Shown: positions 15,609-27,778 of the stretch, in pieces | Layout: the number at the start of each line of letters is the position of its first letter | Position numbering within the stretch: the first letter of the stretch is position 1 | Source of the DNA: a virus | Lineage: Duplodnaviria; Caudoviricetes | Reading direction: 5' to 3' (one strand) | DNA length: 30,155 nt | IMG/VR virus record: IMGVR_UViG_3300012665_000215 | Coordinates: 1-30,155 of that record | Notes under the pieces: model-generated | What the model was told of the DNA's origin: nothing | The model's input: the letters and a program-made list of their open reading frames with translations, nothing else | Databases searched by the model: none | Made by a program: the position numbers and the translations under genes

Positions 15609-16032
15609 TGTTCTCTTCTTCAAATACGTTGTAAACTTGTCTAATTTGACCAATGTAATCTCGCCAACAAGATGCACAAGATGACTGCTCTAGACGGATG
15701 TTAAAGATTCTATAATAGATATCTGTTAAATCCCATTGCACTTTCGGTACTATTTCGTTTTGTGGCTTAGAGAAAAACTCTTTTAAGTATTCGTAGTCCT
15801 CTTGTACTAAGCAATTAGGCTTACGATACGACCATAATTTATTTAGCTTCTCTTTGCGTTCATCACAACCGCAATCCCAGTCTAGGGCTTTAGAAAGTAA
15901 CTCTACTCCTTTCTTAATTCCTGTAACTGTTGTAAATGCTTCGATAGTATCGCCCAACCCTTGAGCGTTCTCGAATGTAGCAACCTCTTTAGGCTCTACA
16001 ATAATTTTTCTTTTAATTGGTCTTTTTGCCAT
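15601..16032 (-). CDS. Hypothetical protein with Cys motifs
   Basis: GLGDTIE...DCGCDERKEKLN...CASC; possible Zn binding. Confidence 0.75.
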   Translation of the reverse strand: MAKRPIKRKIIVEPKEVATFENAQGLGDTIEAFTTVTGIKKGVELLSKALDWDCGCDERKEKLNKLWSYRKPNCLVQEDYEYLKEFFSKPQNEIVPKVQWDLTDIYYRIFNIRLEQSSCASCWRDYIGQIRQVYNVFEEENNG

Positions 16033-16457
16033 TCCTTTAATCGTTGTTTACATTTCTTAATTGTATTATAAACGCTCATAAATCCTATGTTCGTTTCTCT
16101 AGATAGCTTACGAATTGAGATGCGATTGTTAACCCATAGCATAAATAGCTTTTTGTCATACCAGTCCCATGTATCAATAAACTCTATGTAAGGTTGAGCT
16201 AACTCTTCAGCTAACTCATTACTCTCATCTTCTCTTAGTGAATACTCTACCTCTTTTGTTATTTCTGTTTTGATAACCTTCTTAGAATGTAAGTCCATCG
16301 TAAGGCTTCTAAGCGTATAATAAAAATAAGCTTCGTTAATATCTTTGCCATAAACTTTTATATAAGCCTCTTGTACCACATCTTCTGCATAATTAACCTC
16401 CCCAAATTTCTTTACAATTGAAACCCAATGCTTATGCCTTGAATAGATATGCTCCAT
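15996..16457 (-). CDS. ECF-like RNA polymerase sigma factor (late gene activator)
   Basis: Region-2 motif AEDVVQEAYIK and region-4 HTH SIRKLSRETNIGFMSVYNTIKKCKQRLK; sits just before the packaging genes. Confidence 0.8.
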   Translation of the reverse strand: MEHIYSRHKHWVSIVKKFGEVNYAEDVVQEAYIKVYGKDINEAYFYYTLRSLTMDLHSKKVIKTEITKEVEYSLREDESNELAEELAQPYIEFIDTWDWYDKKLFMLWVNNRISIRKLSRETNIGFMSVYNTIKKCKQRLKEWQKDQLKEKLL

Positions 16458-17990: not shown

Positions 17991-18334
17991 AGCGCAGTTA
18001 TGTCAAATTCGATTCTAGGGTTTTCTTTGTCAATAAATTTAAACATATGTAGCTCGTGACATAGTCTATCGTTTTCTATTACTCCGCTGGTTTGTAGGCA
18101 ATCTAATATAATCTTTGCAGCATTATCTAAATCGCTCCTGTTAGACTGAAAATAAACGTTAATCTTAATGATAAATGCTTGTTTTAAAGGCTCGCTCGGT
18201 TTGCCTTTAGCCAAAGCCAATAACCAAGTAAATCGCTTTTCGTATTCTGTTAACTCTTTAGATTTGTAAAGCCTGTTGTTTCCAATCTTGTATCCGTTTG
18301 ATTTGCTAGGTACTTGACCTAATATAGTTATCAT
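17987..18334 (-). CDS. rusA: RusA-like Holliday junction resolvase
   Basis: VPSKSN...SDLDNAAKIILDCLQ...IENDR...NPRIE. Confidence 0.85.
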   Translation of the reverse strand: MITILGQVPSKSNGYKIGNNRLYKSKELTEYEKRFTWLLALAKGKPSEPLKQAFIIKINVYFQSNRSDLDNAAKIILDCLQTSGVIENDRLCHELHMFKFIDKENPRIEFDITAL

Positions 18335-19158
18335 TTTTTATTTTTTGGGTCTAAGATACATGGAGCAGTATTATTCCATTTAATAGAATGATGTAGTCTT
18401 GTATGGTTAGTGTTCATCATTGAAACCTTAACTCCACTTGGGTGCATAAGCACCGAGTGAAATGATTTTACATAAGTTCCGCTTAAAGCGTATTCGTCCG
18501 TCATACCTCCTTTATTGCTTTGCGTATCCTTTTGGTCTAATTGGATATTTGTAAACGTAAAGAATATGTCTCCTCTATTTCCTAGAGTCGTATAAGTATT
18601 AACGTCTTCATTAATCGAGCCTACAAATTGAAATTCTCTATCGGTAGAGCAAATAAAAGAATTCATACACTTACGCTTTAACTTAATTCCGCTAAATCCT
18701 CCGATATGGTCTCCTCCTTGTGAGAATGCAATCGACTTAATATTTACGCTCTTGTAAAAATCTAGCATTTTTTCAAATACTACATCTAGATTAGTGATTA
18801 TTTTAGCTCCGGTTTCGTAACGGTATCCAAAATAATAATAATCGTCATCTAATTGCATAAAGTATTTAACTGCTATTTCTTTCGCTATTTTAAAGCAAGC
18901 GTTACGAGCGTGAATGATAACTTTACGATTATCAAAGTTATTGCCTTCGTCTACCGAATCCGCCATAGCTTTTTTATCAAAGACTTTTACGTTTTCTTCT
19001 CCGTAATTTGCTACGTATTTATTTATCGTTTTGTCTTCGTTATCGACAATGAAATAAATTTTACCCGTATAACCGCATTTTTTTAGAGTCGAATAAGTCT
19101 TAACGTTATCCGGTCTTCCGTGAGTTAGTATAAATACCGCAAAATTATTATTCTCCAT
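18331..19158 (-). CDS. GT-A fold glycosyltransferase (TET-associated/GREB1-like type)
   Basis: VFILTHGRP, ARN, FMQLDDD (DxD), KCMNSF, INEDV and QSNKGG motifs. Confidence 0.78.
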   Translation of the reverse strand: MENNNFAVFILTHGRPDNVKTYSTLKKCGYTGKIYFIVDNEDKTINKYVANYGEENVKVFDKKAMADSVDEGNNFDNRKVIIHARNACFKIAKEIAVKYFMQLDDDYYYFGYRYETGAKIITNLDVVFEKMLDFYKSVNIKSIAFSQGGDHIGGFSGIKLKRKCMNSFICSTDREFQFVGSINEDVNTYTTLGNRGDIFFTFTNIQLDQKDTQSNKGGMTDEYALSGTYVKSFHSVLMHPSGVKVSMMNTNHTRLHHSIKWNNTAPCILDPKNKK

Positions 19159-19546
19159 ATTCTTCTAGGTATTGCTTTTTAATCTCATCGCATAATTTTA
19201 CGTATCCATATTGAATTGCTTTCTCAAAATCAATAATAACTAAACCGCTTTTCTCCATTAGGTTTTGCATCTCTTTTGATGAGTGAGCGTAATAATCGGC
19301 TATCTTTTCGTAGTTAAAAACATTGTGTCTACGAGCCGAATCCATTAAAAACATTTTCTCATCGTATGGTAGTGATGATGCTTCTATTTCTTTTAATAGC
19401 CTATGAGTTTTTGTCTTATCGCATAGCTCCATAATATGAGGCTTTATATTTTTGGGCTCATAAATTGGAGACTCTATTTTACTTGAATATTTATTTTCGC
19501 TTTTGTTGGGTGCATATTCTTGCCCAAATAGATTTGTTTGTTTCAT
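19148..19546 (-). CDS. Glycosyltransferase-associated protein
   Basis: KYSSKIESPIYEP...ARRHNVFNYEKIADYYAH...LVIIDFEKAI. Start at 19546 by TAATG coupling; overlaps the GT start. Confidence 0.65.
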   Translation of the reverse strand: MKQTNLFGQEYAPNKSENKYSSKIESPIYEPKNIKPHIMELCDKTKTHRLLKEIEASSLPYDEKMFLMDSARRHNVFNYEKIADYYAHSSKEMQNLMEKSGLVIIDFEKAIQYGYVKLCDEIKKQYLEEYGE

Positions 19547-20307
19547 TATTCGCAAGGTTTAATTTGTCCGTTTTCATCTAGGTAAGCTTTAAAATCTGCT
19601 AAGTTTTCTATAAACTCTCTGTAACATTGAGCTTTGCAAGCCATTACAAGCTCGTCTTTGTCTTGGTATTTAGCTAAATTACTTGCGTAAATCCTTTGTT
19701 TATCTTCTAAACTAGCTTCGTATATTCCAAATTTTACAATATAATCGTATAAAACGTGGAGGCCACCAGCTATCCAGTTCATTTTAATGTTGCGTTCGTG
19801 GCATCTAATCATTTCTTGAGAATACATATTAGCCGAATTTATCGCTGCCATTTTTAAATCTGCATCGCTTGGTATTTCTTTAGGGGCTTCTATTTCTTTT
19901 ACTACAGTTAAAGTAGATTGTCTTGAGTAATCAATATAAGCCTTTGCAATACGACCAAAGTATTCACAAGAAAAGTTTTCGTAGCATTTAGCATCAATTC
20001 CTAGCTTGCCAGAAACTGCCCACTCAAAGGCTAATTTTATTTCTTCTGGGGTTAAGTTTCCAAAGTTTGTTTTAATAAAATTAATAAGTACAAACTTCTC
20101 TTCTTCAGTAGGCATATTATTGCCTCTAAGCCCTACTAAAACCATTGAATAGCGCAATACTTGTTTAAGGTCTTCTTCGTGCCTTACACGCAAAGTTTGG
20201 GTACTCTGTGCTTGTAATATGATATCAGCTTCAGCGTTACCAGTTTTTAATGGCTTCCATTCTTGCTGCGCTAGTTCCGAGTTTCTGTTCGTTGTTTGTA
20301 GCTCCAT
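19546..20307 (-). CDS. Replication-associated hypothetical protein (position of a helicase loader)
   Basis: Overlaps the initiator 3' end; LTPEEIKLAFE helical motif. Function inferred from position only. Confidence 0.5.
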   Translation of the reverse strand: MELQTTNRNSELAQQEWKPLKTGNAEADIILQAQSTQTLRVRHEEDLKQVLRYSMVLVGLRGNNMPTEEEKFVLINFIKTNFGNLTPEEIKLAFEWAVSGKLGIDAKCYENFSCEYFGRIAKAYIDYSRQSTLTVVKEIEAPKEIPSDADLKMAAINSANMYSQEMIRCHERNIKMNWIAGGLHVLYDYIVKFGIYEASLEDKQRIYASNLAKYQDKDELVMACKAQCYREFIENLADFKAYLDENGQIKPCE

Positions 20308-20923
20308 TGTTTTTAAATTTAGAATTGTTGTTCATCCAAGTTTTTACTCTTCTGCTAATATCAAAAAATTTCTCGCATTCCCATCGCTCTTTACCTTTGT
20401 TATTTTTTTCTGTCCAATAGGAATAAAAATTACCATATTCGTTTTCAAGTTCTAAAATATATGGCGAAAGCATTTCGCTAAAAGATACTTTACTTTCTTT
20501 TTCTTTTATTTCATTTACTTTACTTTCCTTTACTTTACTTTGTTGAACGGTCGTTGAACGGTCGTTGGACAACCGCTTATCGGCTGATGCTTTACCCGCT
20601 AATTTGCGTTGTTCCTTCATTTTAAAGTAAGGCTCTAAGTAAACTAGCATCTTAGGAGAAAAGAATTTTTGTTCTTCATCTAAATCAAACAACTGGTAAT
20701 TACATATTGTTGTTCTAATCTTTGGCTCTGAAACACCAAATTCTTCTGCTAGTAAGTCAATATCTTCAAGAGGATACATTAGGTCTTGTTGCTCCCTTAA
20801 AGTCTCTAATAACATAAAATAAATACCGTAACCCTCTACTCCTAATTCTTTGCGCAACCTTCTAATTTTGCGGTCATGCCTTGCATTACAAAAATGCGGG
20901 AAATAAAATGCTTCTTTTTCCAT
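20237..20923 (-). CDS. Replication initiator-like protein (DUF4373/Lin1244-type N-terminus)
   Basis: MEKEAFYFPH...ARHDRKIRRLRKELGVEGYGIYFMLLE; repetitive linker; C-terminal FYSYWTEKN..GKERWE. Start moved to ATG 20923. Confidence 0.78.
   Translation of the reverse strand: MEKEAFYFPHFCNARHDRKIRRLRKELGVEGYGIYFMLLETLREQQDLMYPLEDIDLLAEEFGVSEPKIRTTICNYQLFDLDEEQKFFSPKMLVYLEPYFKMKEQRKLAGKASADKRLSNDRSTTVQQSKVKESKVNEIKEKESKVSFSEMLSPYILELENEYGNFYSYWTEKNNKGKERWECEKFFDISRRVKTWMNNNSKFKNNGATNNEQKLGTSAARMEAIKNW
20487..20574. repeat. Iteron-like repeats / putative replication origin
   Basis: gttgaacggtc x2 (20542-20563) plus degenerate gttggacaacc, next to strand-biased tactt/tacttt repeats. Confidence 0.6.
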
Positions 20924-21602: not shown

Positions 21603-21911
21603 TTATATTAAATTAGTTACATTTATAAACTTGCAAAAATCATTGTAAGTACCTACTCCAGCATTTCTTGCTTTAAAAAATTCATCTTTAGTAATATCAC
21701 ATAACATTACATCTTTAAAATTAAATTTTAAAATATTGTATAATCTTACAGATATTTCTGATAAATCTGAATAGTCCAATTCTTTAATTGTTTTTAAACT
21801 TCTATTTTTAACTTTAACTTCTGAATAATGGTTTTTTAATTGCTCTGTATATTGGTTTATGATTCTACAAGCATCTAAATATTCTTCTTCAGTTATCTTA
21901 TGATTTTTCAT
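21603..21911 (-). CDS. Protein with an RNA polymerase alpha-CTD-like C-terminus
   Basis: ISVRLYNILK...ITKDEFFKARNAGVGTYNDF resembles the alpha-CTD pattern LSVRxxNCLK...LLKxRNxGxKS. Very AT-rich. Confidence 0.6.
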   Translation of the reverse strand: MKNHKITEEEYLDACRIINQYTEQLKNHYSEVKVKNRSLKTIKELDYSDLSEISVRLYNILKFNFKDVMLCDITKDEFFKARNAGVGTYNDFCKFINVTNLI

Positions 21912-22086
21912 ATTCTTCCATTATAAGTTTAATTTCTTCCATTACTTCTGGGTAGTTTACTTTGCCATAAACCGTTTGTTGGATTATTGGTAAGCTCCAT
22001 TCCCTTGCGCTAAAGGGTTTTATCCCCTTAGCGTTTAAACGGTCAGCGCATAGCTGGTATAAATTCATTTTCTTTATACGTTCCAT
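21898..22086 (-). CDS. Small putative DNA-binding protein
   Basis: CADRLNAKGIKPFSAREWSLPIIQ resembles the IAxxLNxxG...W helix motif of the serine-recombinase recombinase domain. Confidence 0.5.
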   Translation of the reverse strand: MERIKKMNLYQLCADRLNAKGIKPFSAREWSLPIIQQTVYGKVNYPEVMEEIKLIMEEYEKS

Positions 22087-22836: not shown

Positions 22837-23358
22837 TTATTTGTTTAATTGTTGTTTACGAGTTTTGAATGCTTCTAAATCGCTTGGAGTTAGTGAGCTT
22901 TTAAATGTATTGTAAAGTAATGCTAGTTCGTCTTCGGTATGTACGTTAGGTAGCATATCTAAGCGGAACTTTGGGGCTTGTGCAACAGGCATAGAAGAGC
23001 CAGCTGCATCTGTGTCTTTGTCGGTCACTAAGCCAAGCATTGAGCTTAAAGCATAACGTCTAAAGTAAGTAACACCAGAGCCGTAACTTTGATATTCGTT
23101 CATTGCGCCTAGCTTTACAAGCGGAATAGTAGTAAAGCTTTCTAGTTGTTCTCCGCTCTCTACGTGGAAAAGAATAGTCTTAATCCCATTGTCTTGTAGT
23201 AGCTGGGTAAAGCAAAGCTTGTGCTTTTTAAGTAGCGGATTAATTACGCTAAAGATTTGAGGCAAATCTGCATACGTGTAGTTATGTCCCTTAGTATCCT
23301 TGTGGATAATAGGGCAATCGTTTTGAAAGTCGCTAAGAGCTTTTATTAAGTTTTTCAT
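22837..23358 (-). CDS. erf: ERF-family ssDNA-annealing recombinase
   Basis: YTYADL...QSYGSGVTYFRRYALSSMLGL...DTD. Confidence 0.92.
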   Translation of the reverse strand: MKNLIKALSDFQNDCPIIHKDTKGHNYTYADLPQIFSVINPLLKKHKLCFTQLLQDNGIKTILFHVESGEQLESFTTIPLVKLGAMNEYQSYGSGVTYFRRYALSSMLGLVTDKDTDAAGSSMPVAQAPKFRLDMLPNVHTEDELALLYNTFKSSLTPSDLEAFKTRKQQLNK

Positions 23359-23503
23359 TAGAGATAATGTTTACAAGTTTAGAATTAGATTTTTTTTGTT
23401 CGTGAGCTAGCAAATCTTTTGCTTGCCACAAGTCTGAATTATACGACCAAGTCATTGTATAGAATCCAGCTTTATCTTTGAACTGCGCTTTTAAGACTAG
23501 CAT
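23333..23503 (-). CDS. Small early protein (56 aa, MLVLKAQFKDKAGFYTMTWSYNSDLWQ...)
   Basis: Not in the ORF track. Overlaps both neighbours and fills the gap. Confidence 0.6.
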   Translation of the reverse strand: MLVLKAQFKDKAGFYTMTWSYNSDLWQAKDLLAHEQKKSNSKLVNIISNEKLNKSS

Positions 23504-23733
23504 AATACAACTTGGAATTCTGTTTCGTATTTAGTAAAAGTAAACTTGATAAAGCCAGTTTCTTCAAGCTTGCCTTCCGCTAATAGCGAAAGCGTTTTGG
23601 CTAATGCCGAATCGTAATATGCAAACATCGTTATGTTGTTTTGCGATATTCCAACGTGAATGCTCCAGAATTTTTTAGAGCTGATGCCAGTATCTGATAA
23701 TAGCATTTCGACTTTTTTGAATAAATCTTCCAT
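23497..23733 (-). CDS. Small early hypothetical protein
   Basis: 78-aa ORF with the TCTAAACC leader motif. Confidence 0.75.
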   Translation of the reverse strand: MEDLFKKVEMLLSDTGISSKKFWSIHVGISQNNITMFAYYDSALAKTLSLLAEGKLEETGFIKFTFTKYETEFQVVLC

Positions 23734-23737
23734 TGGT

Positions 23738-23848
23738 TTAGATGTTTTGGATAAAGTAAATAATGTAGTAGGTTAAGTAAACGACTGTAGAAATCATGAT
23801 AGCTCCAGCTATGTCGTTTTTGTCAAGATTTTTTAATGATTCTCTCAT
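23738..23848 (-). CDS. Small membrane peptide (36 aa, MRESLKNLDKNDIAGAIMISTVVYLTYYIIYFIQNI)
   Basis: Not in the ORF track. A-rich start context, one TM segment, preceded by a hairpin and AATTCTAAAC. Confidence 0.65.
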   Translation of the reverse strand: MRESLKNLDKNDIAGAIMISTVVYLTYYIIYFIQNI

Positions 23849-23867
23849 TTTATTATAGTTTAGAATT

Positions 23868-23885
23868 GCCGGGAATCCGCCCGGC
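23868..23885 (-). promoter_or_regulatory. GC-rich intergenic hairpin
   Basis: GCCGGG-CGGATT-CCCGGC with no U tract; probably a stabilising or processing hairpin. Confidence 0.6.
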
Positions 23886-23899
23886 TCGGTTTTTAATAT

Positions 23900-24073
23900 T
23901 TAAAATTTTGAAGTAATTAAGAATCCAGTTCTACCATCCGTTTCAACATTAAAGATATTCTTGTTTGAATACATAGTAGCTACATAATTTTTAGCTTCCT
24001 TAAAGGAATTAAAGAACGTATAAGTAAATTCTTCTGTGTAACTTTTAGCGTAGCCGATTGCGAAATTTGTCAT
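23900..24073 (-). CDS. Small early protein (57 aa, MTNFAIGYAKSYTEEFTYTFFNSFKEAKNYV...)
   Basis: Not in the ORF track. Directly behind promoter/leader copy 1. Confidence 0.7.
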   Translation of the reverse strand: MTNFAIGYAKSYTEEFTYTFFNSFKEAKNYVATMYSNKNIFNVETDGRTGFLITSKF

Positions 24074-24165
24074 TTTTTTGTTGGTTTAGAATAGCTCCGT
24101 TGCTATTATGAAACAAATATAGAGGATTGATTTGAAATAAAAAAATCTTTTTTAATCTTTTTTAT
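24071..24165 (-). promoter_or_regulatory. Early promoter/leader cassette, copy 1
   Basis: TATATTTG (-7 box, 24114-24121), then hairpin AATAGC-AACGGA-GCTATT, CTAAACCAAC, an A run and ATG. 24080-24109 is identical to 24373-24402. Confidence 0.8.
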
Positions 24166-24175
24166 TGAGTATATA

Positions 24176-24364
24176 TTAAAGCCACTTGCCTACAATTGGC
24201 TTACCGTAGGCTTTGTCGTATCCCTCGTTAATCAATTTATTTAATGTGATTAACGACAATGCTTTTAATTCTTTTTGTGTTTGCTTAATGCCATTTAGCT
24301 TGTTTAGCATATTTAGCTCTTTTTGTCTACTAAGCTTAGTTGCTTTTGATACGTCTATTTCCAT
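24176..24364 (-). CDS. Small basic early protein (62 aa)
   Basis: Start moved to ATG 24364 (MEIDVSKATK...), because the longer track ORF runs through the promoter. Confidence 0.7.
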   Translation of the reverse strand: MEIDVSKATKLSRQKELNMLNKLNGIKQTQKELKALSLITLNKLINEGYDKAYGKPIVGKWL

Positions 24365-24459
24365 TTTTTTGGGTTGGTTTAGAATAGCTCCGTTGCTATT
24401 ATAATTCAAAGATACAAAAAACATTTGGAATAAAAAAACTTTTTTAATCTTTTTTTTAT
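24362..24459 (-). promoter_or_regulatory. Early promoter/leader cassette, copy 2
   Basis: TATCTTTG (24407-24414), with the same hairpin and leader and the same upstream A/T tracts as copy 1. Confidence 0.8.
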
Positions 24460-24486
24460 CAAATAAGTTAATTATTTATCTAACGG

Positions 24487-24522
24487 TAACAAAAATGCCC
24501 CTAGACAATATCCAGAGGCATT
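24487..24522 (-). terminator. Intrinsic terminator (end of late transcript and of the candidate sRNA)
   Basis: AAUGCCUCUGGA-UAUUG-UCUAGGGGCAUU (12 bp, with G-U pairs that form only on the minus strand), then UUUGUU. Confidence 0.8.
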
Positions 24523-24555
24523 CAGTACACAATTCTAAACCTATTTATGAAAAAC
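24487..24555 (-). ncRNA. Candidate small antisense regulatory RNA (~68 nt)
   Basis: Begins just after TAGCTTTG. Its 5' segment GUUUUUCAUAAAUAGGUUUAGAAUUGUG is complementary to six start regions, and it ends in a terminator hairpin. Confidence 0.6.
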
Positions 24556-24558
24556 AAT

Positions 24559-24566
24559 CAAAGCTA
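24559..24566 (-). promoter_or_regulatory. TAnnTTTG -7 box overlapping the phosphoesterase stop codon
   Basis: TAGCTTTG; no clear -33 TTTG upstream. Confidence 0.5.
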
Positions 24567-25553
24567 CACAATTCTTCCGTCTTTTATCATAATGTTATTA
24601 ACATTTGTTTTACCATCTGTAATATCTACTATCGCATATCCATTGTTATGTTGCGCAAAAGGATAGTACTTAGGCGATAACTGGGTTAAGCAACCTGTGC
24701 TATACGTATGAAAGAACTGCTTAAATCCGTTCTTCTTTGTAGTACTAGTAGTTCTATGAACGTGACCAATAAGTGTATTACAAAAAGTCTTGTTAAATGT
24801 GCTTTGGCTTGGATTCATTCCACCAGCCATAAGCTCGTGTCCATGAAGTATAAGCAAATCAGCTAATTCTATCCCTTGCCAATCAGGCACATAAATCATA
24901 TTAAGCTTATCTAGCCTAAAAAATTGCTCGAACTGCATCTCGTGTAGTTGCGCAAACTCTTCAGCTTGCTCGTTTAAATACCTTTGCCACCTGTTTTCGT
25001 GGTTACCCATCTTATAATAGATAGGAATCAATGGAAATAAATCTCTAATCTTTTGCAAGAAGTTGCGCCCCATCTCTATTTCTCTTGGGAAGTCACGCAA
25101 ATCTTTCTCCTTTTCGTGTCGACTTATTGCGTAAAAATCCATTATATCCCCATTCAAAATAAGGCAATCTATATTAGATTCTCTTAGGTGCTTAATTGCG
25201 CATATAATTGCGCTCATTGAATGATAAGGTACATGGATGTCGGATAGTACTCCAACCTTTTTAAAGTCCTCTGTAATGCGAAGGCTAGTGTATTCTTTAC
25301 CTAAGCTATCTTCTATGCCGAAATTATCTAGCTCATCTACATCAAAAGATTCTATTATAGCTTGCGGTCTTGTTTTCTTAAAATGTTCGCTTCGTTTTAT
25401 GACACTAATGTCGTATTTAGACATTTGACCGTGAAATACTTTCTGAGATGAAAAGCCATATGTTTGCCAGTTTTCACGCTCAAAGTCTACTCTTGTTAAA
25501 TTAGTTGAGTAAAAATGCTCTTTGATTGCTTGCCACTTCTTATTTAATTGCAT
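24564..25553 (-). CDS. Calcineurin-like metallophosphoesterase
   Basis: SDIH, NGDIMD, GNHE, HGH and GHVH motifs. Confidence 0.92.
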   Translation of the reverse strand: MQLNKKWQAIKEHFYSTNLTRVDFERENWQTYGFSSQKVFHGQMSKYDISVIKRSEHFKKTRPQAIIESFDVDELDNFGIEDSLGKEYTSLRITEDFKKVGVLSDIHVPYHSMSAIICAIKHLRESNIDCLILNGDIMDFYAISRHEKEKDLRDFPREIEMGRNFLQKIRDLFPLIPIYYKMGNHENRWQRYLNEQAEEFAQLHEMQFEQFFRLDKLNMIYVPDWQGIELADLLILHGHELMAGGMNPSQSTFNKTFCNTLIGHVHRTTSTTKKNGFKQFFHTYSTGCLTQLSPKYYPFAQHNNGYAIVDITDGKTNVNNIMIKDGRIV

Positions 25554-25998
25554 TCAGTCCAAATTTAAGATATAAGTAAGCTACTAAGGCTACAAACTCT
25601 ATAAGCAAAATCCATACTACCCACATAGGAACTCTATATTTTATAACCTCTTTATCTCGGTATTCTATAATTCTACCAAGCGAAGACTTGTAATTATTCT
25701 CTATCTCGGTACGCATTGAATCTAAATCTATTTGGGCTTGTATATTGCCCCCTACCGAACGAATTACAACCTTGCCTTGTGGTAGTATCAATTTGCTATA
25801 AAAATTGCTTAAAACCCCGCTAGAGTCGCAAGGGTTTACGATAGTCATAGTATCGTGAATAGCTCTAAACTTTTCTACTATTTTCACGCTTTGTATAGTA
25901 TCTATTCTAAGCACTTCTTTATACTCAGTAATAGATTTACTAGGCTTGCACGAAAAGAACGCAACACAAGCCAAAAGAATCAGTAATTTTTGCATCAT
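25540..25998 (-). CDS. Probable unimolecular spanin
   Basis: Lipoprotein signal ending FFSC, plus a C-terminal TM (WVVWILLIEFVALVAYLYL); follows the endolysin. Confidence 0.7.
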   Translation of the reverse strand: MMQKLLILLACVAFFSCKPSKSITEYKEVLRIDTIQSVKIVEKFRAIHDTMTIVNPCDSSGVLSNFYSKLILPQGKVVIRSVGGNIQAQIDLDSMRTEIENNYKSSLGRIIEYRDKEVIKYRVPMWVVWILLIEFVALVAYLYLKFGLNAIK

Positions 25999-27019: not shown

Positions 27020-27050
27020 TATAAACGCAATTAGATATTTTTTGTTTCTA
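27020..27050 (-). promoter_or_regulatory. Putative late promoter for the lysis cassette
   Basis: TAGAAACAAAA-N12-CGTTTATA. Confidence 0.7.
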
Positions 27051-27055
27051 ATTAG

Positions 27056-27778
27056 CTAAACACTATACTCCCATTTGTACCCTCCACTTGTTAAATATCT
27101 ACCTTTACAACATTGAGTTATAGCTGAAGGGTTTATTGAATTTTCTATACTAGCCAAACTAATTGAATCGTAAATTTTAATAGTTAAATTATCTAATGAT
27201 TTTTGTATAACCTTTTTTTTGATTTTACTATTTTGAGACATCTTTAATTTAGTTTCAACAGATGCTATTTTACCTAAATTATTTTGTCTATGCTTTTCTT
27301 TAGTAGACTCTAAATGAATACGGTTTTTATTAGCTTCTCCTATTTTTGATTTATGCTCTTCGCTAAACTTTTTACCTAATCCACTTAAGCTAATATTATC
27401 TCGCCATTGCTTAGATAACTTTTTACCTAAATTTGCTTTTTTAGTTTTACTTATTTGCCTAAGCTTTTGTCTAGTTTTTTCCGAAACAATTACCCCGCAA
27501 CCTCCATCTCCTCCATCTGTCAAGTTTACTAAAGAGCCTTGTTTTAAATTCCTTCTACCATAAATAGAAATAAATTCTATCTCCTTTAGTTTGGCTTGTT
27601 CTGGAGTTAATTCATCAAATAAAATTTCTATTTTATAATCAGTTTTATTAACTATTCTATTCCAGTATATATTTCTATTAGTTTTTACTTTAGCTCTTTG
27701 ATAATTACTTGAACTACCAATTCCAATATAAAAAACCTGATTTGTATCTAATCGAATATGTCTATAAACGTATGCCAT
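27056..27778 (-). CDS. Free-standing GIY-YIG-like homing endonuclease with NUMOD3/NUMOD1-type repeats
   Basis: YVYRH...FYIGIG...R...E...LVNLTDGGDG, then repeated (L/F)S.E.K.KIS/MS units and a C-terminal YDSISLAS...CCKG...GGYKWEY. AT-rich. Confidence 0.85.
   Translation of the reverse strand: MAYVYRHIRLDTNQVFYIGIGSSSNYQRAKVKTNRNIYWNRIVNKTDYKIEILFDELTPEQAKLKEIEFISIYGRRNLKQGSLVNLTDGGDGGCGVIVSEKTRQKLRQISKTKKANLGKKLSKQWRDNISLSGLGKKFSEEHKSKIGEANKNRIHLESTKEKHRQNNLGKIASVETKLKMSQNSKIKKKVIQKSLDNLTIKIYDSISLASIENSINPSAITQCCKGRYLTSGGYKWEYSV

Follow-up and report, generated by a model that had tools for sequence, protein, structure and literature searches.

Between the metallophosphoesterase gene and the first small early genes of a lake phage of Bacteroidota lies a short segment whose minus strand reads as a promoter box, an open stretch complementary to start regions and a terminator hairpin. 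What does this segment do? A sequence-only reading had proposed that it encodes a trans-acting RNA with two seeds aimed at the start regions of early genes. The window (the whole stretch of DNA that was analysed) is a complete phage genome of 30,155 bases with direct terminal repeats, and all of its genes lie on the minus strand, in the order tail fibre, endolysin, lipoprotein-like gene, metallophosphoesterase, small early genes, erf, replication initiator, RusA, ECF-like sigma factor, terminase and structural genes (Table 1). By terminase, the closest cultured phages are Nonlabens phages P12024L/S (59%), whose hosts are Flavobacteriaceae; the RNA unit is absent at the equivalent place in P12024L/S, and no DNA match to a cultured phage spans it. 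The ECF-like sigma factor is likely the late-gene activator, and P12024L has a sigma-70 region 2 gene at the same position. A candidate late promoter motif, CGTTTATA, stands ahead of late gene blocks near 27027, 16074, 14117, 7524 and 4182, and P12024L has the late motif together with a sigma gene of the same kind; the motif CGTT(T/A)ATA lies ahead of 19/563 late versus 1/565 early starts. At 18331-19158 lies the gene of a TET-associated glycosyltransferase (PF20691), which suggests that DNA bases are modified, and at 27056-27778, within the tail region, that of a free-standing homing endonuclease.

Table 1. Coordinates of the RNA unit, neighbouring genes and early target sites in the window
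Feature	Positions	Strand	Basis or remark
Putative -7 promoter box, TAnnTTTG	24559..24566	minus	Sequence match
Predicted small RNA, about 65-69 nt, start 24555 or 24554	24487..24555	minus	Box spacing and fold
Seed 1, anti-AUG, complements start codon and first codons	24547..24555	minus	9/9 with erf start
Seed 2, constant core GGTTTA plus lineage-specific extension complementing early leaders	24530..24542	minus	Core conservation, covariation
Intrinsic terminator hairpin and U tract	24487..24523	minus	Paired changes in relatives
Metallophosphoesterase gene	24564..25553	minus	PF00149, phrog_221; last gene ahead of RNA
ECF-like sigma factor	15996..16457	minus	TIGR02937 E 3e-5, under TIGR02937 cut-off
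Early unit 1: -7 box 24414-24407, 5' hairpin about 24400-24383, target site 24385-24376 (10 nt), AUG 24364	24362..24414	minus	
Early unit 2: -7 box 24121-24114, 5' hairpin like that of unit 1, target site 24092-24083 (10 nt), AUG 24073	24071..24121	minus	
Hairpin, target site 23868-23858 (11 nt), AUG 23848 of 36-aa gene	23840..23885	minus	Orthologues give clearest matched changes
Target site 23742-23735 (8 nt), AUG 23733	23725..23742	minus	
erf (ssDNA annealing protein, PF04404): leader site 23386-23377 (10 nt) and start 23358-23350	23350..23386	minus	
Target site 20328-20318 (11 nt), AUG 20307, within replication-initiator gene	20300..20328	minus	Partly conserved

The -7 box opens with TAG, which doubles as the stop codon of the phosphoesterase gene. 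In the available text of PMC9723704, the -7 box of Flavobacterium spans -12 to -5, and this spacing gives the mRNAs of early units 1 and 2 identical first bases. The predicted RNA has its first 32 bases unpaired and then a single hairpin, which folds at -18.8 kcal/mol (z -3.4; 0/200 shuffles as good), so the box followed by a terminator hairpin that had been read on the minus strand is indeed there. The terminator is also the predicted end of the lysis/phosphoesterase transcript; a consensus terminator scan did not have it among those listed. The -33 TTG was present in 0/80 units of relatives (6/80 for early promoters, with a T tract instead), and because this element is absent the RNA's own promoter may be weak. 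The window holds a single copy of the unit. A second exact -7 box at 25560-25567, directly ahead of the phosphoesterase start and kept in close relatives only, would yield a nearly leaderless phosphoesterase message. In 34/101 relatives the stretch from the terminator to the first early promoter contains a conserved motif that starts with CCGTTA (about 24465-24490 in the window); other relatives have palindromic repeats in its place.

The unit is conserved. Three scans of viral contigs returned 165 loci with the end of the phosphoesterase gene, 111 of them distinct, and 101 of the 111 have a hairpin and U tract directly behind that gene. Both seeds occur in 98 of these 101, in the order -7 box, anti-AUG seed, variable spacer, second seed, terminator; TTTCAT of seed 1 is found in 83/101 and the seed 2 core GGTTTA in 91/101. 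The -7 box is exact in 74/99 relatives and has at most one mismatch in 98/99, compared with 10/971 and 96/971 at other TAA/TAG stops, where the best position was chosen for the focal sites, 87 of them at the stop codon. In five loci the box is exact though shifted off the stop codon. The seeds are conserved while spacer and stem change: spacer length runs from 3 to 22 nt, and 10 of 14 terminator stem pairs show changes on both sides across 20 sequences, with pairing kept. A small GAAA-loop hairpin is inserted between the seeds in two loci (L028, L029/L092). We considered TTTCAT as a mere transcription-start motif and rejected it, as it stands at widely differing distances from the box and some RNAs have it in duplicate. 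The remaining ten loci comprise eight with an inserted NUMOD4/HNH gene, one with a different short unit and one distant relative, and the unit reappears behind the insert in seven of the eight, the eighth being too short. These inserts (L011, L092, L112, L165, L175, L176, L189 and L190) lie between the phosphoesterase stop and the RNA unit; the -7 box now precedes the inserted gene, whose conserved, structured leader, about 100 bases long, is its own. Class E/F phages (seed classes are defined below) have a second unit upstream of the phosphoesterase gene, consisting of -7 box, anti-AUG and AGGTTT seeds, internal hairpin and terminator (L138:9841-9954, L150:5664-5775 and six other loci), and their downstream unit has a changed seed order. 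A unit of the same type lies just ahead of a gene start in an unrelated phage contig without phosphoesterase (L095:3838-3909).

Which messages might such an RNA bind? The 8-mer ATTCTAAA occurs eight times on the coding strand of the window, five times directly upstream of AUGs listed in Table 1. All six upstream matches that had been proposed were found with the expected positions and lengths, as was the 9-nt anti-AUG match over the erf start at 23358. Among curated starts, a complement of at least 8 bases is present in 9/25 early/middle versus 0/27 late start regions (Fisher p 6e-4), and one of at least 10 bases in five versus none; the count of nine was equalled in 2/1000 shuffles. Four of the first six early genes have at least 10 complementary bases. 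Pairing energies were computed with ViennaRNA duplex and cofold. The first six early start regions pair with a mean duplex energy of -15.9, which none of 1,000 shuffled RNAs (-9.1 +/- 1.3) or 1,000 shuffled leaders (-11.0 +/- 1.0) reached, so the enrichment of early start regions held up against shuffled controls. Among all 50-base segments of the coding strand, the start regions of erf and 23848 are the top two, erf being best with a duplex of -20.2 kcal/mol, whereas targets 24364, 24073 and 23733 are just in the top 4-5%. When opening costs are included, erf (-17.9) and 20307 (-15.6) remain at the top and early exceeds late with p 0.015, but for three of the six targets the binding energy is just -10 to -11.5 kcal/mol, and a capsid gene region, pairing upstream with the unzipped terminator, ranks third. 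The 20307 site lies inside coding sequence, and at least 11 bases of it are retained in only 9/17 class-A relatives. Early unit 1 is a duplicate of early unit 2 (79% identical). Six-pair hairpins with a CGGA-containing loop stand directly 5' of three target sites (24383-24400, 24090-24107 and 23868-23885) and are possibly 5' stabilisers or a protein site; the hairpin at 23868-23885 also reads as a plus-strand terminator.

We next consider whether seeds and leaders have changed together among the relatives. Seed classes were assigned from the RNA sequence first and leaders were inspected afterwards; gene starts in the relatives were called by a simple script, some of them wrongly. Loci with fewer than 1800 bases downstream or fewer than six called genes were left out, as were L188, L200, L045, L193 and class J (L047, L048), in which the neighbouring genes have the opposite orientation. 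The class-A motif ATTCTAAA was found in 52/179 class-A early leaders versus 1/87 class-B early leaders, and in 0/184 class-A late leaders; conversely, CATCTAAA was found in 17/87 class-B versus 10/179 class-A early leaders. Class C leaders have ACTTAAAC in 12/110 cases and class G leaders AATAAACC in 5/32; class D has its own motif just once in 56 leaders. Across 80 usable phages, at least 8 complementary bases were present in 181/634 early versus 26/640 late leaders, with 79% for the first early gene, and early leaders paired better than late ones in 67/70 phages. In a 12 x 12 class matrix built from 37 of the 80 phages (up to four per class), own early leaders were best overall by three measures (0/100,000 permutations, p 1e-5) and own late leaders gave p 0.43-0.996, although own leaders ranked first in only 7/12 classes and seventh to eighth for C2 and B2. 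The clearest case is an orthologous small gene whose leader carries AATTCTAAAC in 20/22 class-A rows, AAACATCTAAAC in 3/3 class-B rows and AACAACAA in 6/6 class-E/F rows, each matching the resident RNA. In L059 there is a near-full-length match between the RNA and two of its own leaders. On the early strand, the density of 9-base sites is 13.7 times higher within start regions than outside them.

The seed classes track clades, with 17 label changes on a phosphoesterase tree obtained by a quick tree search, so that no more than about a dozen of the changes are independent and the permutation p makes the evidence look stronger than it is. Exceptions to the match between seed and leader are classes B2, C2 and D, the 20307 site and L146, which has a class-B RNA with a class-A erf leader. 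Should phages of different seed classes infect different genera, a host motif could shape the seed and the leaders separately, with no pairing between the two. With these reservations, the comparative evidence that the predicted RNA targets the phage's own early genes is unusually good. Starting from what is observed, namely the unit, its conservation, its homologues in bacterial chromosomes (below) and the matched changes of seed and leader, we consider it on balance probable that this phage gene, which is conserved and has multicopy homologues in the chromosome of the likely host, specifies an RNA of about 65 bases that pairs across the start codon and the A-rich leader of several of the phage's own early messages and so keeps them from being translated. 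The proposal of a trans-acting, two-seed RNA aimed at early start regions has thus been strengthened by conservation, by covariation with own early leaders, by a G-U bias and by the lack of a conserved opposite-strand frame.

The closest described relatives of the unit are bacterial. FopS, as described in the available text of PMC11697453, comprises 14 paralogous sRNAs of 65-70 nt in Bacteroides thetaiotaomicron, each with a canonical promoter, an open 5' seed and a terminator; FopS-10 blocks translation in vitro by start-region pairing, and the family represses exported glycan-uptake genes. The authors mention a phage copy and raise the idea that phages spread such RNAs (PMC11697453). A pattern made from the phage unit retrieved FopS-type copies in bacterial genomes, three of five tested passing the Rfam cut-off. 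FopS (RF04319, as far as described there) and the predicted phage RNA are alike in the -7 box, the following 4-5 bases, the open 5' stretch with anti-AUG and AGGTT motifs, the terminator and the length of 65-70 nt. The canonical -7 promoter box of FopS is present in the phage unit by sequence, with the -33 TTG absent. For the R1/R1' seed the comparison is mixed: both motifs are there, but spacer and extension differ. In the same source, FopS is multicopy in the chromosome, has one member of 3'-end type and pairs at start regions, whereas the phage RNA belongs to a lytic phage and has a lineage-variable seed that tracks its own leaders; it is present once in the window and twice in class E/F phages, and its chromosomal homologues are multicopy. 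RF04319 gave no match at the phage locus with E up to 10, and against its cut-off of 56 bits the best relative tested, L099, scored 25.9 and true FopS copies 59-74. A sequence model of 14 FopS-type copies matched L143, L095, L099 and L056 (E 1e-4 to 0.03), not the copy of the window. We regard the unit as a real, conserved gene for a predicted FopS-like sRNA and not as a formal FopS member. FopS RNAs are bound by RbpB, an RRM-1 protein, and repress translation of susC-type messages; an RRM-1 gene (RbpB-type, PF00076) was not found in five genomes of the likely host genus and was found in the B. thetaiotaomicron control. GibS of B. thetaiotaomicron (RF04182), for which the available text of PMC7366714 proposes ribosome exclusion at start regions, resembles the phage RNA in its long open 5' seed across start codons, its two seed regions and its setting in a phylum without Shine-Dalgarno sites; it differs in its length of 145 nt, non-canonical promoter, internal hairpins and two proven targets (PMC7366714).

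A closer family is found on bacterial contigs. In a metagenome scan it lay beside pth, metG, pyrB and other housekeeping genes in 44/62 loci, and a homologue is present in 61/64 genomes of one Cytophagales genus near Aquirufa; an exact 22-mer was found in 7/401 Cytophagales. On a model of the phage RNA these homologues score 50-64 bits, phage members outside the model 55-66 and FopS-type copies 21-36. The model had no match in five other Bacteroidota (150 candidates per genome scored) or in 151 phylum-wide genomes (29 per genome), a search of lower sensitivity with no positive control. The close homologue in the likely host's chromosome is new here. Box, seeds and terminator are as in the phage, and the first copy of a tandem pair also overlaps a stop codon. 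Compared with the phage unit, the chromosomal family (members L279-L340, and G296 with its genus) is arranged in tandem pairs or longer arrays, each locus holding two to six copies, and has a nearly invariant seed, with GGT rather than the phage extensions after the shared core. In the metagenome scan, GGT follows the core in 44/44 copies away from a phosphoesterase gene that have a terminator and this seed end, and ATT in 11/11 behind the phage gene. Identity with the chromosomal family in the core seeds reaches 21-23 bases in 8/101 phages and is 14 in the window. Some arrays hold six copies (L305:1453-2367) or four (L309:1453-2015), spaced about 95-270 bases apart, with a clear -7 box on the last only. 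At the 3' end of dnaK (G296:C10 about 431200-431300), the second seed of the chromosomal family is followed by a terminator without the anti-AUG part, and third copies in other genomes score similarly.

The Pth protein encoded beside one copy has Aquirufa and Sandaracinomonas as its nearest named relatives (70-73%). Because of this and the homologues in 61/64 genomes, a clade near Aquirufa is the likely host, so the phage likely infects Aquirufa or a genus close to it. A spacer-like match to a host was not identified. Weak DNA matches in 13/64 genus genomes, the best five at the tail-fibre end (65-69%), are too generic to prove the host. A search with the erf protein yielded no host name.

Alternatively, the RNA might be aimed mainly at the host, as an extra dose of the host sRNA that lowers exported sugar-uptake proteins and TonB-dependent receptors, for saving resources or for removing receptors against superinfection; the match to early leaders would then be a by-product of a copied host start motif. 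The shared core speaks for this reading, and FopS represses comparable genes (available text of PMC11697453). A bipartite target pattern is present in 64/64 genus genomes, at a few sites each besides the two sRNA copies and at far fewer in a reversed control. Starts with this two-part pattern mostly belong to exported glycan enzymes and transporters, plus one TonB receptor: 24 sampled sites include fucosidase, sialate esterase, hexosaminidase, 3-keto-disaccharide hydrolases, Gfo/Idh/MocA enzymes and a nucleoside permease, and the start of a TonB-dependent receptor in G450 matches at 27/29 bases. Several host starts, selected by the pattern, pair at -20 to -24 kcal/mol, equal to or better than the best phage target. 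Since such starts occur in every genome, some host repression is likely if the RNA is made. A conserved 32-codon frame whose start matches the target pattern lies at 1520-1615 in L404, L406, L417, L421 and L422 of the likely host genus, and is possibly a leader peptide or a frameshifted gene. Against a mainly host-directed role, the phage-specific extension is rare in host starts: among 543 called starts of G296 (680 kb), 19 have at least 8 complementary bases and just one at least 10, and ATTCTAAA occurs in 1/543, set against four of the first six early phage genes. Ten G296 starts pair at -17 or better with the RNA of the window, and four other Bacteroidota gave just 11/485 starts. Mean pairing of host starts (-10.3) lies between those of late (-9.5) and early (-12.4) phage starts, which argues against a global host shut-off. 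The lineage-matched changes on the orthologous phage gene would be left unexplained, and each phage's own seed beats the chromosomal copy on its own early leaders in 74/80 phages, with three ties. We therefore regard the host as an unlikely main target.

Less probable still is an RNA-only immunity repressor that keeps a lysogen or carrier state, the role that the sequence-only reading had suggested by comparison with P1 and P4. C4 and CI RNAs act by two-site pairing. A host-type promoter would work without phage proteins, and the targets are the first genes read after entry. The window has no HTH_3 repressor match, in line with the earlier remark that a CI repressor is not recognisable, and no antirepressor match. 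As a hint of an RNA repressor, though, this absence loses its force, since a missing CI is expected of a lytic phage, the record being complete with no match to a tyrosine integrase or HTH_3; with no lysogeny gene found, P1/P4-type immunity is unlikely. A weak ParB-like match at 19148-19546 (phrog_620 E 5e-6) would allow a plasmid-like carrier state. Further against immunity, an integrase was also not found in five relatives (four complete and one partial), no prophage relative was seen among 52 candidate stretches of bacterial genomes, and the phosphoesterase gene has no relative in bacterial genomes. A 62-aa gene at 21898-22086, present in nearly all relatives and with no family match, presumably has the pattern of a small helix-turn-helix protein and might instead serve as a protein regulator. 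An Rfam scan of the window gave nothing above cut-off, including no GibS and no C4 match. C4 of P1/P7 and the CI RNA of P4, according to the available text of PMC8201110 and PMC5499578, are RNase P-processed immunity factors of temperate elements that act on one operon; they share with the predicted phage RNA its small size and action in trans on phage transcripts, and differ from it in that here there are many start codons and a one-hairpin fold. FopS and GibS are thus the closer models, and the immunity role has been set aside with the comparison.

Could the segment be something other than a minus-strand RNA, such as the place where a gene on the other strand starts, a decoy made from the plus strand to titrate the host sRNA, or a protein-binding site on DNA? 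Read on the plus strand, the segment looks like a flawless early start, and a frame of 39 codons opens there in the window; since early phage leaders pair better with the host sRNA than late ones do (p 5e-5), a decoy would be useful. Among 98 relatives, however, the opposite frame runs from 3 to 48 codons in all three phases and so is no gene; box and U tract are oriented to the minus strand; and antisense sites of the early regions are at background (66 in 234,580 nt). Pairing from the minus strand also predicts the bias in the first mismatch beside the seed, which is G-U in 56 cases and C-A in 17, where composition expects 38 and 23.5 (p 0.005). A protein site fits poorly with the varying spacer and with the hairpin inserted between the seeds. 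We consider these readings very improbable. Least credible of all is a plain terminator with leftover captured sequence and chance matches, for although a terminator is required for the lysis transcript in any case, the unit is missing from the related isolate P12024L and Bacteroidota starts are A-rich with an upstream A-rich zone that tunes initiation (PMC6847099), the shuffle tests and window enrichment, the early-late contrast, the covariation in the class matrix and the conservation of the seeds largely refute it already.

Returning to an RNA that acts on the phage's own early genes, a possible course of events is as follows. Host polymerase would start 4-5 bases past the -7 box and make the RNA from its own promoter, and read-through from the phosphoesterase and lysis genes would add the same 3' end late in infection. 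The open U/G-rich part may clamp two sites, at about -28 to -10 and at the AUG, with the intervening bases looped out. By analogy with FopS-10 in vitro and with the proposal for GibS, seeds covering the AUG and the upstream A-rich zone would exclude the ribosome. As the RNA accumulates during infection, the first early genes and erf would be turned down jointly and with delay, and late start regions would escape. A handful of host messages for exported glycan-uptake proteins would also be repressed, since the phage RNA has its core seeds in common with the host family. The fuller evolutionary account is more tentative, the case for and against it being nearly balanced: a lytic lineage may have taken a FopS-like translation-blocking sRNA from its host and repeatedly re-aimed the seed at its own early leaders, giving an RNA-only off switch for early genes that also silences host uptake genes.

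To our knowledge, known phage regulatory RNAs mostly have one target or belong to temperate enterobacterial phages. Our literature search, whose coverage left out most subscription journals, found no paper on a Bacteroidota phage sRNA aimed at the phage's own genes, and the word 'Bacteroid' is absent from a 2025 review (PMC12197685). The homologues described here show FopS-like RNAs reaching beyond gut Bacteroides into an abundant lake genus, bear on the FopS authors' idea of spread by phages and give a host lead for an uncultured phage group. Natural compensatory variants are present in the genomes, so exchanging seeds and leaders would put the pairing claim to a direct test. If the account is true, the early programme of the phage would also be wired to the level of the host sRNA, because the host copies pair with the same leaders, and anti-start-codon sRNAs would be a phylum-wide device common to Bacteroidota and their phages.
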